From: Bacillales bacterium | GTDB taxonomy: Bacteria > Bacillota > Bacilli > Bacillales > Amphibacillaceae | Direction of reading: 5' to 3' | Length of the DNA stretch: 24,000 bases | NCBI GenBank assembly: GCA_026168805.1 | Contig: JAPFDS010000047.1 | Span: 11,241-35,240, forward strand | In this document: positions 9,898-24,000 of the stretch, one piece after another | Layout: each line of letters opens with the position of its first letter | How positions within the stretch are numbered: the first letter of the stretch is position 1 | Notes under the pieces: model-generated | Databases searched by the model: none | Seen by the model: only the letters and a program-made list of their open reading frames with translations | What the model was told of the DNA's origin: nothing | Translations under genes and position numbers: made by a program

Positions 9898-10190
9898 ATA
9901 TATATGTTACATTTACAGGGTTCATCAGACATTCTACCTATCCATACCGCATTGTAAGTTCCATCCTATGAAATAATTTTCTCCCATGATCTATTTGTTC
10001 AGCTATTTTCACGCTTATTGTCATTCCTATACTATAGTATAGTCTTTTATATTATTTCTTTAATGCAATTAGCATACGATCTGTCGGTTGCTGTAACGAA
10101 CTAATATGCCAACTAGGATTTATAATTTATTTATGGGATACTAATCTTATGGTAAATCGTCGTCTAAAGAAAGATCTATATCATCTAAAT

Positions 10191-10373
10191 TCACATGAGT
10201 TTTTCTTGATTATGATTTCTATCATTTAGTAATCTCATTATATCCTCATTGACTGTTTCACCAAAAAACACGTGAGGTAGCAACTCACCGTTGTATTCTA
10301 TATGTTCTTTGTAAGCACTTTGATAGCTTGGAAAGATATTTAAAAGCTCTGCCACAACGTCATTATATTTCAT
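10191..10373 (-). pseudogene. Small island-edge ORF that looks like a truncated N-terminal half of a larger protein (motif LLPHVFFGE)
   Basis: 60-63 codons. The better SD (AAAGGA) serves the second ATG at 10373. The C-terminus ends abruptly, and another frame continues as HVNLDDIDLSLDDDLP*. The family is not identified with certainty. Confidence 0.4.
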
Positions 10374-10439
10374 TAAGCTCATCCTTTTATGAATATCACA
10401 GGTTGATTTGTTCTAAGGTGCATCTATTCATTTTTTAGC

Positions 10440-10958
10440 TCACTTACTGTTGGAGTACATGTCTTCTCTTTCATTTTTTAAGAAAAGGTTTAAATTTTCA
10501 ATTAAATAATCTTCCGGAGATACATTTGAATTTCCTAGTTCTTGAGGCATATAATTAATAAATGATACCATGTCTTCCGGATAACCAATAGAGTCATAAA
10601 ACAATGCTATTTCTTTTAACAAGTCAGTTTTATTTGATATCGTTTGTTTCAGTTTACAGAGCATAACATATCTTACTTTTCTAAATTCCTTTTCCCATTC
10701 GAGGTTATGGAAAAAGGAGGATGAGAGATATTCGTCCTTAATCAGCTTTAAATACCGTTCTTGTTTTGTTTCCTCTATCTCCCAAGCTAGCTCAATAATA
10801 TCATTATCATTTATATTTTGGTTGTTTACTAAGAGTTCACACGCATAATCAGTCATAATATGTAAACTGAACATGTTATAGTAGATTCCGACATAAATAG
10901 TGTTCCAATTATATTGTAGTTTCATATTTTCAAAGTCATTAAGTTTTAAATATTTCAA
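10440..10958 (-). CDS. Hypothetical protein, DUF2247-like putative immunity protein
   Basis: The C-terminal motif GYPEDMVSFINYMP and the overall size recall DUF2247, but this is from memory. The probable TTG start at 10958 follows AGGTGA. The ORF-track GTG at 10967 overlaps the SD. Confidence 0.55.
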   Translation of the reverse strand: MKYLKLNDFENMKLQYNWNTIYVGIYYNMFSLHIMTDYACELLVNNQNINDNDIIELAWEIEETKQERYLKLIKDEYLSSSFFHNLEWEKEFRKVRYVMLCKLKQTISNKTDLLKEIALFYDSIGYPEDMVSFINYMPQELGNSNVSPEDYLIENLNLFLKNEREDMYSNSK

Positions 10959-11084
10959 TAAGATCACCTACGATATGTCTTTTATTATTTGGTTTATTCC
11001 TAAAACAAAAACTAGAAATCATAATGGTAAAATTACAACCTCTAGTATCATTCTGCATTTTTAATGAATTTACCTTATTTTAAT

Positions 11085-11544
11085 TTACTCATCACCATCT
11101 TCATAAAGGCTATCAAGAAAATCCCAAATATTGTCAGCTAGGAAATACATATTACTCATATCAGGTTCATCAAGATCTGGTTCATTCTCGTGATCCCAGA
11201 AGTAGATTTGATCATAATATGACTCTGTAGTGCCTAACAATATCGCATTTCCTCCACCATCATTACCTACTGGAATAAACCCCGCCGGAATTCGAAATTC
11301 ATATATATCCAGACATTCTTCTAAGTCATTGCCGTTCTCAATATCACCGATACTAAAAAAGTAGTGCATGACAGTAATTCCCTCCCACTGAGGAACGTTA
11401 AAAACTGCCATATCAGGAGTCCCCCCCATTCCACTTTAGTAAAAACTCTCGATAACTATCAGTTAGCTTTATATTAGTTTTTAATTCAACATTTTCAATA
11501 TCTTTCTGTGACAATCTATGATAAGTATCTAACATCTCAACCAT
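11085..11544 (-). pseudogene. SMI1/KNR4 (SUKH-1) immunity-family gene with a +1 frameshift in a G7 tract
   Basis: Two overlapping ORFs (11413-11604 and 11085-11429) join into one SUKH protein, ...REFLLKWNGG|TPDMAVFNVP...IPVGNDGGGNAILLG..., if one G is removed from the G7 run (plus-strand C7 at 11421-11427). Confidence 0.8.
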
Positions 11545-11636
11545 ATGCTCTCTCCCAATCAAATAAAATATATTACTTAGCTGAACCCGATAAAACCCCA
11601 ACATTCTTAAATTGTTTTTACTCTAGTAATTTATCT

Positions 11637-11945
11637 TTATTTTTTTGATGAGTTCTTTAAAAATGAATTTAGCTTATTACTCAAATTTACTTTGACATTT
11701 CCTAAATTGTTTTGTTTGGTACTTATTCTTTTAAAGTTCAATATAAAACTTTCAAGTGATGGAGATATTAAATATATATTTTCTCCAACCATTTCATGAA
11801 ACCAAATATATATTTTATTTTGAGTTTCATTTTTTACTCCAATGCAAATCAAATCTCCTCCAGGTAAATCTGCAATAGGAATTAAATCAGCAAGTGAATC
11901 AATTTCATAATAGTTGTTTTTAAAAATACAAAGACCTACAGAATT
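11637..11945 (-). pseudogene. C-terminal fragment of a SUKH/SMI1-KNR4 gene split by an IS
   Basis: The frame is open from just after a TAG at 11946-11948. It encodes NSVGLCIFKNNYYEIDSLADLIPIADLPGGDLICIG...IYIWFHE, a typical SUKH C-terminal core. Confidence 0.75.
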
Positions 11946-22223: not shown

Positions 22224-22975
22224 ATCAACAAAATTATGATAAAATGAAAGCACTTAATTTAACTGGAATGGCTGAATCTTATGAAACATTATTTGCGAAT
22301 CCTTCTTTTCAGGAAATGGACTTTGATGACCTACTAGGTCTTCTATTAGATCACGAAGAAAGTGTTCGTAAAACCAATAAGTTAAATCGTCTTTTAAAAC
22401 AAGCAACATTTCCTGAGGAAGCAGCAATTGAAGAGATTATTTACGATACAGACCGTAAACTAAATAAAGATTTATTAATGAAGCTCTCTACAGGAAATTA
22501 TATAATAGAAGGAAGAGATATTGTGTTCAAAGGAGTATCTGGTGCAGGTAAAACATGGTTAGCGATTGCATATGGTGTGCAGGCTTGTCGTCAGTTTTAC
22601 AAAGTGAAATATGTTCGGTTACCAGATCTTTTAGAAGAGTTTAAAGTAGCAACATATCAAGCTGATGGTAGTTATACAAAACTAATGAAAAAGCTCATTA
22701 AGGTTGATCTTTTAATCATTGATGAGTGGCTGTTATTTGAGCTTTCAAAAGAGGAAGCAACTTTACTATTGGAAATTATTAATTCACGCTATACGGCTAA
22801 GAAATCAAACATTTTTTGTTCTCAATTTGACATACAAGGTTGGTATGAAAAACTTGGAGATGGAACACTAGCGGAGGCTATACTAGATCGGATTATCCAT
22901 AATTCATATGACATATTTATTGATGGGGCCGTATCTATGCGCGAAAAACTAGGAATTAATGCAGTGAAAATATAG
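22220..22975 (+). CDS. istB: IS21-family helper ATPase IstB
   Basis: 251 aa. Walker A GVSGAGKT and Walker B LLIIDEW. Its start overlaps the istA stop in ATGA. Confidence 0.92.
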   Translation: MNQQNYDKMKALNLTGMAESYETLFANPSFQEMDFDDLLGLLLDHEESVRKTNKLNRLLKQATFPEEAAIEEIIYDTDRKLNKDLLMKLSTGNYIIEGRDIVFKGVSGAGKTWLAIAYGVQACRQFYKVKYVRLPDLLEEFKVATYQADGSYTKLMKKLIKVDLLIIDEWLLFELSKEEATLLLEIINSRYTAKKSNIFCSQFDIQGWYEKLGDGTLAEAILDRIIHNSYDIFIDGAVSMREKLGINAVKI

Positions 22976-23009
22976 AATTTAAGCAAACAGTATCATAAAT
23001 ACAAAACAA

Positions 23010-23047
23010 AGCATGGATAGATATAAGTATCTATTCATGCTTTTTTC
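23010..23047 (+). terminator. Rho-independent terminator inside the IS21 right arm
   Basis: Stem AGCATGGATAGATA pairs with TATCTATTCATGCT (13 of 14 bp). T6 follows at 23041-23046. Confidence 0.8.
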
Positions 23048-23144
23048 ACACAAGTGGTAAACCAGTCCGCAAGGACTGGTACATTTGTCCGCAATGTGTG
23101 GTAAAAAGAATCGCAAGCCTGGTAAGGATCATCCGCAATACTCA

Positions 23145-23284
23145 CCAGTTGCTTCTCCATCTTTATAACCTGACTTTGGTACCCACTTACCCCCTATTAA
23201 ATCGTCCGTTGTTACCAATTCATTACATCCTGCCAAGATAATTAATAATGTACTAATTATGAAAAATAAACTATGTTTTCTCAT
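23145..23284 (-). pseudogene. N-terminal part of lipocalin-like lipoprotein paralog 2, split by IS21
   Basis: ATG at 23284 follows GAGGGAG. It encodes MRKHSLFFIISTLLIILAGC (lipobox) NELVTTDDLIGGKWVPKSGYKDGEATG. Joining it to 20499 after removing one CCAGT copy restores a 131-codon gene. Confidence 0.85.
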
Positions 23285-23506
23285 GTGATATCACTCCCTC
23301 AATAAATTAAAGTTATCTCCTTAAATATCCGGACAGACGAAACTACATGTTCCATTAATGTAGCTGATTTTGGTAACTTCGGAATATGCAGTTAGATAAC
23401 GATTATCCAAAATTTCTCCTTACTACAGGAGAGAGAATCTGAGATGTTTCCAACCACTGTATTAATCACAAGTATCCAGTTGGTTTCATCCTAAAATATC
23501 ATGACT

Positions 23507-23896
23507 TTATTTCTTCCGCTCAAAATAACAATTTAACCTTTTGATTATCCCTGAACCATTTAAACCAAATGCATCTTCACTTTCCATAGTAATCTCAAAA
23601 AAATTAACTTGTCCACTTGGGTTAAAAAATATTATTTCCATTCCATCATCTGACTCAGTGAGTTTATAGTCAAATTCTTTTTCTTCATCAATCACATACA
23701 CTTTTTCGTTATCAATAAATTCCATACCTTCATCAAAAGCAGGGCATAATGGCTCTCCGCCGATTTCTCCATCCTCATACCCATTTGTAACAAGCCACTT
23801 ACCCCCAATAATTTGATCTTCAGTTATCACGTTACTACAAGCTCCCATAACTATTATTACTATCATAATCATTAAAAGGCTTCTGCCAAGTTTCAC
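23507..23896 (-). CDS. Small lipocalin-like lipoprotein, paralog 3 of 3
   Basis: GTG start. Lipobox VMGAC. The mature part begins IIGGKWL, with the two conserved Cys, SDDGMEI and NCYFERKK. Confidence 0.85.
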   Translation of the reverse strand: MKLGRSLLMIMIVIIVMGACSNVITEDQIIGGKWLVTNGYEDGEIGGEPLCPAFDEGMEFIDNEKVYVIDEEKEFDYKLTESDDGMEIIFFNPSGQVNFFEITMESEDAFGLNGSGIIKRLNCYFERKK

Positions 23897-24000
23897 ATCT
23901 CAACACCCTTTCACTCTCACCCGCAGTCTACTTACCAATATATTCGAAGACGTCTTCTATTGTATTTATAAGTTATCAATTTCTTCTTGAAATATGTCTA

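Follow-up and report, generated by a model that had tools for sequence, protein, structure and literature searches.

How did a long run of small immunity-type genes come to lie beside ordinary chromosomal genes with no intact toxin gene among them? The question is raised by a 24,000-nt stretch of contig JAPFDS010000047.1 (assembly GCA_026168805.1), from a bacterium of the Bacillales, hereafter called the window, whose positions are used throughout. The window divides near 9900 into a left part of ordinary genes (the left flank, 1-9855) and a right part, the island (9856-24000). An initial annotation had taken the island for the orphan-immunity tail of a polymorphic-toxin locus of the LXG/type VII secretion system (T7SS) type. 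That proposal is supported by the LXG loci of relatives, by collinearity with one of them (L014), by three toxin scars and by the genomic context of homologues. We conclude, with a probability of roughly 0.8, that the region is a heterogeneous polyimmunity (orphan cassette) array behind an LXG-type toxin gene whose product is exported by a T7SSb, the 3' end or relic of that gene lying at the right edge of the window.

Lipoprotein genes follow LXG toxin genes in related loci

The island encodes three lipoproteins of one family (Table 1). Scanning species-representative genomes with this family yielded three Pseudogracilibacillus loci (71-77% identity), and a metagenome scan yielded five more (49-83% identity). 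The related loci compared here are numbered L001-L020, with L001-L003 from Pseudogracilibacillus, and homologous proteins carry P-numbers. The region upstream of the lipoprotein array is present in 5/8 of the loci (L001-L003, L014 and L016), where it contains six LXG toxin genes. All six have a lipoprotein gene directly downstream. The arrangement in relatives is a toxin gene followed by one or many copies, up to ten, of a putative cognate lipoprotein immunity gene. In all, arrays of the lipoprotein family occur in nine Pseudogracilibacillus or metagenome loci. Full-length LXG toxins of relatives (n=3) are 605-617 aa long and match Pfam LXG at ~1e-19, and in L001-L003 each toxin gene is preceded by a gene for a small DUF5344-like helical protein. 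The toxins come in two variants, with the C-termini ...ELDRIFGK and ...DIEIVKD, which pair with two lipoprotein subtypes. Both subtypes are present in the window. The C-terminal domain of these toxins (~250 aa) has no match in Pfam, NCBIfam or PDB sequences.

Two of the three lipoprotein genes in the window are intact, as initially annotated, and the third (lipoprotein 2) is split by an IS21-family insertion sequence (IS). Lipoprotein 1 has a signal peptide, a lipobox with Cys20 and two conserved cysteines, and is a putative extracytoplasmic immunity protein to the LXG toxin. Lipoprotein 3 stands directly after a toxin scar, like the first array member after the toxin gene in relatives. Lipobox sequences VMGAC, MSGC and LAGC, read from the sequence, put the cysteine at position 20. 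Since Cys20 is invariant in 22 members of the family and two further cysteines are conserved, an extracytoplasmic site of action is pointed to. TipC and TilA act outside the cytoplasm (PMC6193138, PMC10730906), and the analogy with TelC/TipC and TslA/TilA suggests that the LXG tip linked to the lipoproteins may have a target in the envelope. The lipoprotein family has no Pfam match and its profile found no significant match in the PDB. A structure predicted from a three-sequence alignment reached a pLDDT of 60, too poor for fold comparison.

Two further observations concern the placing of these genes. A block of ~50 nt just 3' of lipoprotein genes is 81-86% conserved across several loci (window 20193-20243; L018 41-91 and 721-773; L015 1200-1254; L016 4382-4432) and could mark a junction between cassettes or a site of recombination, comparable to the homology blocks of esaG and tipC. 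In L001 (1-2775, a metagenome-assembled Pseudogracilibacillus genome) the LXG locus starts ~900 nt after rnr-smpB. The tmRNA gene ssrA, a common integration hotspot, would be expected in this gap. Because the L001 locus lies near rnr-smpB and the island adjoins pdaA, the position of the locus is not conserved.

The right edge aligns with the 3' end of LXG genes

Upstream of lipoprotein 1 the window contains only the end or a relic of a gene. The ~25 nt at its close (GGTAAGTAG stop context), together with the spacer after them, align with LXG 3' ends. In this alignment the final 25 nt (GAATATATTGGTAAGTAG) lie against the stop context (CGAATTTTTGGTAAGTAG) of toxin genes from the relatives. L014 is collinear with the window through the toxin end, lipoprotein 1, the spacer and lipoprotein 2. 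The ~50 nt preceding lipoprotein 1 match the toxin-to-lipoprotein junction of L014, and between lipoproteins 1 and 2 the 196-nt spacer shares 80% identity with its counterpart (23317-23510 versus L014 1537-1731). None of the edge frames ends in the C-terminal lipoprotein motif CYFER, which excludes a further lipoprotein gene upstream. An LXG gene or its relic very probably lies immediately upstream.

Three toxin scars precede their matching immunity genes

Homology searches support three toxin 3' scars within the island, the third of them a probable one, each directly upstream of the matching immunity gene. The first precedes lipoprotein 3. Its translation shares 45-50% identity with the LXG toxins of L001-L003 over their C-terminal 44 residues (tblastn, E 4e-5), and its DNA is 74% identical to L001 4822-4987 over 166 nt (E 3e-23). 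A 57-codon open frame (17563-17733) between the 171-aa gene and this scar ends in ...QALAPEI, which lines up with ...SEALDEIK of the relatives' toxin. Judged from that alignment, the scar may reach ~15 codons further upstream than the blast boundary.

The second scar (17008-16892) shares 79-91% identity with ten toxins over their final 33-38 residues (E ~1e-17), including one named 'ribonuclease YxiD [Bacillus subtilis]' with LXG and PT-TG domains. In B. subtilis and Priestia flexa a SUKH gene lies downstream of the YxiD-type toxin gene. The SUKH gene that follows the scar in the window is 69-76% identical to the P. flexa gene.

The third scar (19255-19175) aligns with positions 73-91 of the 92 in Pfam Ntox50 (E 0.0014, under the gathering score) and is 59% identical to the C-terminus of P0040, itself an Ntox50 protein at 9.8e-19. 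It also aligns with residues 117-141 of the 141 in chain B of PDB 9V8I, the C-terminal domain of YxiD (E 0.002), and the gene after it is a homologue of chain A of the same structure. No Ntox50 scar was seen upstream of the homologues of that 113-aa gene in L009-L013. In P0040 itself (137 aa, from a Logan assembly) the C-terminal half of a YxxD-6633-like protein is fused to the last 70 residues of an Ntox50 domain, as might result if Ntox50/YxxD cassettes stood in tandem in another genome and had recombined or decayed there.

Homologues of the island genes stand behind toxins in other genomes

In Metasolibacillus, Aciduricibacillus, Rossellomorea, Virgibacillus, B. wiedmannii and Paenibacillus, homologues of the 219-aa and 113-aa proteins are encoded either within LXG islands or downstream of an RHS toxin. 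The initial annotation had listed the open reading frames (ORFs) of 219, 171, 113 and 95 aa as candidates for new immunity families. The 113-aa and 171-aa proteins lost that status, belonging to the YxxD-6633 and CdiI-EC869 families, and the 219-aa protein kept it.

The 219-aa family has 21 homologues, all labelled 'hypothetical', and those with a named source are all from Bacillaceae. In the first four genera above its members lie in unidirectional islands behind LXG toxins, with CdiI_3/4, SUKH, YezG, Imm11 and Imm30 genes as neighbours. In four genomes (L007, L008, L019 and L020) a conserved tip of ~95 aa, with the motif KYDDRVLKRMKED.G.HH.FPTSFDK...SDWKRYSNRW, is encoded directly 5' of the 219-aa gene across a gap of 14-20 nt. 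In L019 an RHS/YD toxin of >2,269 aa has this domain as its tip, right after the core end ...RIDPSGY. In L008 the linker that precedes it also precedes a different (EndoU) tip nearby, and one pre-toxin linker with different tips is a hallmark of polymorphic cassettes. Neither the tip nor the 219-aa protein matches Pfam or NCBIfam, and an AlphaFold2 model of the latter (pLDDT 81) found no fold match in the PDB. The two are a well-supported candidate for an unnamed toxin-immunity pair.

The 113-aa protein covers residues 3-108 of the 110-aa 9V8I chain A, and its family profile matches at 1.4e-58. YxxD was described in 2025 as neutralising the Ntox50/BECR tRNase domain of YxiD (PMC12700104). In B. 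wiedmannii, Paenibacillus lactis and Rossellomorea, genes for homologues of the 113-aa protein are found within LXG or WXG islands.

As a single sequence the 171-aa protein has no Pfam match, and a word-indexed search returned nothing. That it is an orphan was ruled out by a full HMMER scan, which at E<=0.001 recovered 316 representative clusters. When 50 of these homologues were combined into a profile, it matched chain C of PDB 7VMC at E 3.5e-25 (positions 7-166 against residues 9-177). This chain, 'Contact-dependent inhibitor I', belongs to the CdiA-CT EC869 system (PMC9071432). No recognisable toxin partner or scar stands beside the 171-aa gene. Another member of the family, P0061 (549 aa), contains three matched stretches of the same domain and looks like a fused triple immunity protein.

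The CdiI-like and DUF2247-like genes named in the initial annotation were both upheld by Pfam, with 99 and 92 bits respectively. CdiI_3 (PF18616; 99.2 bits against a cutoff of 28) is matched over positions 2-95 of 95, and the protein is 75% identical to a 162-aa homologue in L007 (Metasolibacillus). DUF2247 (PF10004) is matched over positions 2-157 of 158. This domain is Imm38, 'found in heterogeneous polyimmunity loci' (Zhang et al. 2012, PMC3482391). In a separate observation, the L007 CdiI_3 homologue (8473-8961) and the unrelated P0039 (172 aa) share a similar C-terminal extension, LDWL(Y/D)AFQGF(F/L)F, which may be read-through into shared inter-cassette sequence.

The 95-aa ORF has no match in Pfam, NCBIfam or PDB and a single homologue, P0038, 74% identical and located on a 697-bp contig.

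Short open reading frame tails

Three short tails between the immunity genes (13798-13968, 18253-18318 and 19769-20024) had been read as toxin C-termini. They exist as ORFs, and a supporting match was found for none of them. The three have no match in Pfam (E<=10), where 17733-17563 also found none, or in PDB sequences. Together with 17733-17563 they were joined into one chimeric query against 5.8 billion proteins, with no match to a tail, since all protein matches belonged to the separate YxiD scar. The intergenic regions containing them likewise found nothing supporting a toxin origin among all ORFs of 18 related loci. The sole other signal was at 20006-19935, where 24 aa resemble LXG residues 170-193 (E 0.03-0.1). 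Picking out short ORF tails by eye is thus not a reliable way to recognise toxin remnants.

Layout of the window

Every non-IS gene with family support, from 23896 down to 10191, is on the minus strand, so the one-directional run initially described holds for all family-supported genes. Most intact island genes have a strong Shine-Dalgarno sequence, as also described. Other features of the earlier description that were borne out are the higher AT content of the island and the adjoining pdaA gene. With the three IS elements removed the island has 31.4% GC, against 36.4% in the left flank. The proteins of the cassettes are 75-91% identical to those of other genera and GC content is 5 points under that of the core, which is consistent with horizontal acquisition of the cassettes. 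The flank with pdaA and the putative clpE showed no synteny with any of the related loci compared.

A scan of the window for promoters found no enrichment of promoter-like sites (62 versus 69 expected). Few terminator-like sites were found, and no strong minus-strand terminator lies within the island. Because terminator-like sites are few, expression by read-through from upstream is plausible.

The left flank also contains genes that lie outside the island and were recorded in passing. Between 278 and 5662 two divergent modules flank each other, each with a small GntR-type regulator, an ABC ATPase and a membrane protein. The regulators match PmtR-like proteins weakly, and the modules resemble export/immunity transporters of the phenol-soluble modulin or lantibiotic type. 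At 5776-6645 a stand-alone 289-aa protein of the metallo-beta-lactamase fold is similar to the C-terminal part of ComEC, with a match (1.2e-36) that stays under the cutoff of the model.

Table 1. Features of the window, listed in the direction of island transcription.
Feature	Position	Strand	Evidence and remarks
Relic or end of LXG toxin gene	23930-24000	-	Alignment to LXG 3' ends of L001, L002 and L014
Lipoprotein 1, subtype 1, 129 aa, intact	23507-23896	-	71-83% identity to LXG-following array members of L001-L003 and L014
Lipoprotein 2, subtype 2, split by IS21	20239-23284 (N 23284-23144, C 20500-20239)	-	Family alignment
IS21-family element (istA, istB)	20501-23143	+	NCBIfam IS21 transposase 7.6e-65, IstB 1.3e-63
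Two short helical ORF pieces	19772-20024	-	No family match
SUKH gene, intact, 146 aa	19293-19733	-	Pfam SUKH_6 3e-16, 60.5 bits (cutoff 27)
Probable Ntox50 (BECR tRNase) scar, last 27 codons	19175-19255	-	Followed by the 113-aa gene
113-aa gene, YxxD homologue (B. subtilis 6633)	18808-19149	-	phmmer 9V8I_A E 8.5e-47
95-aa ORF	18423-18710	-	No family match
171-aa CdiI-EC869-like immunity gene	17729-18244	-	Profile match to PDB 7VMC chain C
Decayed LXG toxin 3' end, ~44 codons, four in-frame stops	17406-17570	-	Followed by lipoprotein 3
Lipoprotein 3, 129 aa, intact	17016-17405	-	Same family as lipoproteins 1 and 2
YxiD-type LXG RNase scar, last 38 codons	16892-17008	-	Followed by the frameshifted YxxD-type SUKH gene
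SUKH gene, B. subtilis yxiD-adjacent type, frameshifted	16459-16889	-	T7 run at 16606-16612
219-aa gene, unnamed family, candidate immunity protein	15665-16324	-	Context of homologues
CdiI_3 gene	14058-15577 (ORF 15577-15194; tail ~14129-14058 beyond IS30)	-	Pfam CdiI_3 1.3e-28
IS30-family element	14133-15193	-	NCBIfam IS30 transposase 1.3e-75
69-codon open frame upstream of SUKH gene	13801-14007	-	No family match
SUKH gene split by IS1182-family element	11640-13768 (N 13768-13461, C 11894-11640)	-	Pfam
IS1182-family element	11896-13458	-	NCBIfam IS1182 transposase 2.6e-86, 290 bits (cutoff 270)
SUKH gene, frameshifted	11085-11604	-	Pfam SMI1_KNR4 on both halves
DUF2247 (Imm38) gene	10440-10967	-	Pfam 5e-26, 91.7 bits (cutoff 25)
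Truncated DUF7674-like ORF, distal island end	10191-10382	-	20.9 bits (cutoff 27), positions 2-45 of 111; weak
pdaA	9052-9855		TIGR02884, 340 bits (cutoff 298)
Clp/Hsp100-type ATPase, 707 aa	6746-8869		Best matches ClpB and ClpA models, below their cutoffs

Is the decay of the island real?

Four SUKH genes and one fragment had been counted in the island. The four genes were recovered, and the fragment (11637-11852) proved to be the C-terminal half of the SUKH gene that is split by the IS1182-family element. The N-terminal half of that gene matches model positions 3-72 and the C-terminal half 74-124. The one intact gene is 77% identical to the SUKH gene directly 3' of B. subtilis yxiD (L004 7707-8150). 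The other three match on both halves, with 24.8-40.4 bits against a cutoff of 25.4. That only one of the four is intact holds for the sequence as it stands. The count is provisional, since both frameshifts lie in 7-nt homopolymers and are repaired by a single base, so that sequencing errors are possible. A 1-nt repair in the T7 run (coding strand) of 16889-16459 restores 143 aa, and removal of one G from the G7 run (coding strand) at 11421-11427 restores a 173-aa ORF. The frameshifts may be either slipped-strand mutations or sequencing errors.

These repairs are the case for supposing that the decay is partly an artefact of assembly, with two intact SUKH genes miscalled as pseudogenes in a largely functional repertoire. 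We regard this as a possible explanation, held with less than even confidence. Slipped-strand mutation in homopolymer runs also inactivates genes genuinely, and the four stops in the 17570-17406 scar lie outside homopolymers. Three real IS elements with terminal inverted repeats interrupt or abut immunity genes, and two of them have clean target-site duplications. The IS21-family element has imperfect terminal inverted repeats of 97 nt and a 7-bp duplication, ACCAGTT; its removal together with one duplication copy restores a 131-aa ORF for lipoprotein 2. Likewise, removing the IS1182-family element and its 5-bp duplication, CAAGT, gives a 187-aa SUKH ORF. Because these duplications are clean and the host ORFs otherwise intact, the two insertions are probably recent. 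The IS30-family element has 20-nt terminal inverted repeats (14133-14152 and 15174-15193). The CdiI_3 ORF stops exactly at its edge and the homologous tail resumes on the far side, where 14129-14082 is 85% identical in DNA to L007 8821-8868.

Is there still a toxin at the head of the array?

Several points weigh against an array behind an LXG toxin. The parent toxin lies outside the window, which holds no intact toxin gene, as the initial annotation had stated, and no T7SS gene was found within its 24 kb. The genome and metagenome scans recovered relatives of only 49-83% identity and no same-species genome, and no identical entry turned up for the exact sequences of three proteins of the window, a lipoprotein, a SUKH protein and the Clp ATPase. 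The Ntox50 scar scores 19.8 bits, under the gathering score of 22.2. The three ORF tails, the 95-aa ORF and the DUF7674 fragment are without assignment after these searches. Finally, each reading frame meets a stop no more than 35 nt from position 24000, which means that the upstream gene may be truncated or dead.

The last point bears on a second alternative, in which the island is a free-standing polyimmunity cluster whose head toxin is dead or deleted, like acquired interbacterial defence clusters, so that the cell defends itself and does not attack. Compared with the relatives' LXG 3' ends, the last ~25 codons at the edge are scrambled, with indels upstream of the final 25 nt, and blastn homology to the toxin genes ends at 23947. 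At 17570-17406 the same toxin end occurs a second time and is clearly dead there, and the three IS elements and two frameshifts speak of decay in the island at large. On the other hand, the C-terminal tail of the toxin varies in relatives, ending ~14 residues earlier in L016 and ~11 later in L003, so that a toxin ending at 23965, where the sequence reads ...DIFQEEIDNL*, could be intact. Lipoprotein 1, directly downstream, is also intact and has a good Shine-Dalgarno sequence. We consider a defence-only island rather unlikely, and the balance tips slightly towards an intact LXG gene immediately upstream.

That the island is an ordinary housekeeping, prophage or type II toxin-antitoxin cluster merely resembling an immunity island is most improbable: the 95-aa ORF, the DUF7674 fragment and the tails lack an assignable function, but the window has no integrase, tRNA or phage genes, nine genes belong to polymorphic-toxin immunity families, sequence matches link three scars to secreted LXG or Ntox50 toxins, and homologues stand behind LXG or RHS toxins in at least 10 other genomes. 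The prophage and type II toxin-antitoxin readings were rejected, no supporting gene being present in the window. Neither a tmRNA nor any Rfam family was found in it.

A heterogeneous polyimmunity array behind an LXG toxin gene could have arisen as follows. Cassettes of a toxin tip with its immunity gene would have recombined in over time from other Bacillales. They would have included YxiD RNase/SUKH, Ntox50 tRNase/YxxD-6633, a CdiI-EC869-like cassette, CdiI_3, Imm38 and the 219-aa family. The toxin parts would then have been deleted or have decayed to scars and the immunity genes retained, since no more than the final 27-44 codons of each toxin survive in the scars. The retained genes may protect the cell against the corresponding toxins of its neighbours. 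Those no longer useful would now be decaying through the three insertions and two frameshifts.

Comparison with known systems

We lean towards the view that the island holds members of two toxin-immunity pairs unnamed in any library. The first would consist of a disulfide-bearing lipoprotein of ~110 aa, in up to ten copies, behind an LXG toxin with an unmatched C-terminal domain of ~250 aa. The second would be the 219-aa family after its unannotated ~95-aa tip, on both RHS and LXG-island scaffolds. If so, the toxin of the first pair would have a new activity directed against the cell envelope. The two are modestly novel leads in a type of locus that is well known, from polyimmunity and orphan-cassette arrays and from T7SS immunity strings (PMC3482391, PMC9484751, PMC8321402).

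The 171-aa gene resembles the immunity gene of the CdiA-CT/CdiI EC869 system of E. coli (7VMC, PMC9071432), compared by sequence through its family profile. Unlike that system, it belongs to an LXG island of a Gram-positive bacterium and has no recognisable toxin partner or scar adjacent to it.

As in the EsaG, TsaI and TipC strings of T7SS loci (PMC9484751), several non-identical copies of one immunity family lie beside a toxin. TilA, the immunity protein to TslA (PMC10730906), is a lipoprotein like the family in the window. Similarity of the TipC/DUF576 type was not found, as the lipoprotein family matches neither Pfam nor a PDB chain, and it therefore resembles neither TilA (DUF576) nor the solved TipC structure. 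The likeness to TipC and TilA is functional only, consisting of lipoprotein arrays beside an LXG toxin. Unlike in these systems, the paired toxin tip has no Pfam, NCBIfam or PDB match.

In the LXG loci of B. subtilis (YxiD-YxxD; PMC8321402, PMC12700104) the helper, LXG toxin and immunity genes are co-directional, as in the relatives examined here. The window contains homologues of both published types of YxxD, the SUKH type and the 110-aa 6633 type, and scars of both YxiD toxin tips, that of Ntox50 being a probable one. It differs in having no visible intact toxin and many unrelated cassettes strung together. The head toxin of the relatives differs too, in its unannotated C-terminal domain and putative lipoprotein immunity. 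In this locus three toxin scars can be connected with their immunity genes, and the YxiD/YxxD pair, characterised in 2025, is among them.

Polyimmunity loci (Zhang et al. 2012, PMC3482391) show the same unidirectional mix of SUKH, Imm38/DUF2247 and CdiI types, likewise with truncated toxin tips between the genes. They lie downstream of a full-length toxin, as the island may too. The orphan cassettes described there differ from the scars in the window, which are 27-44 codons long, have no conserved pre-toxin linker and are dead relics that cannot be reused. Such arrays record the toxins met by a lineage and are a practical source of new toxin-immunity pairs.

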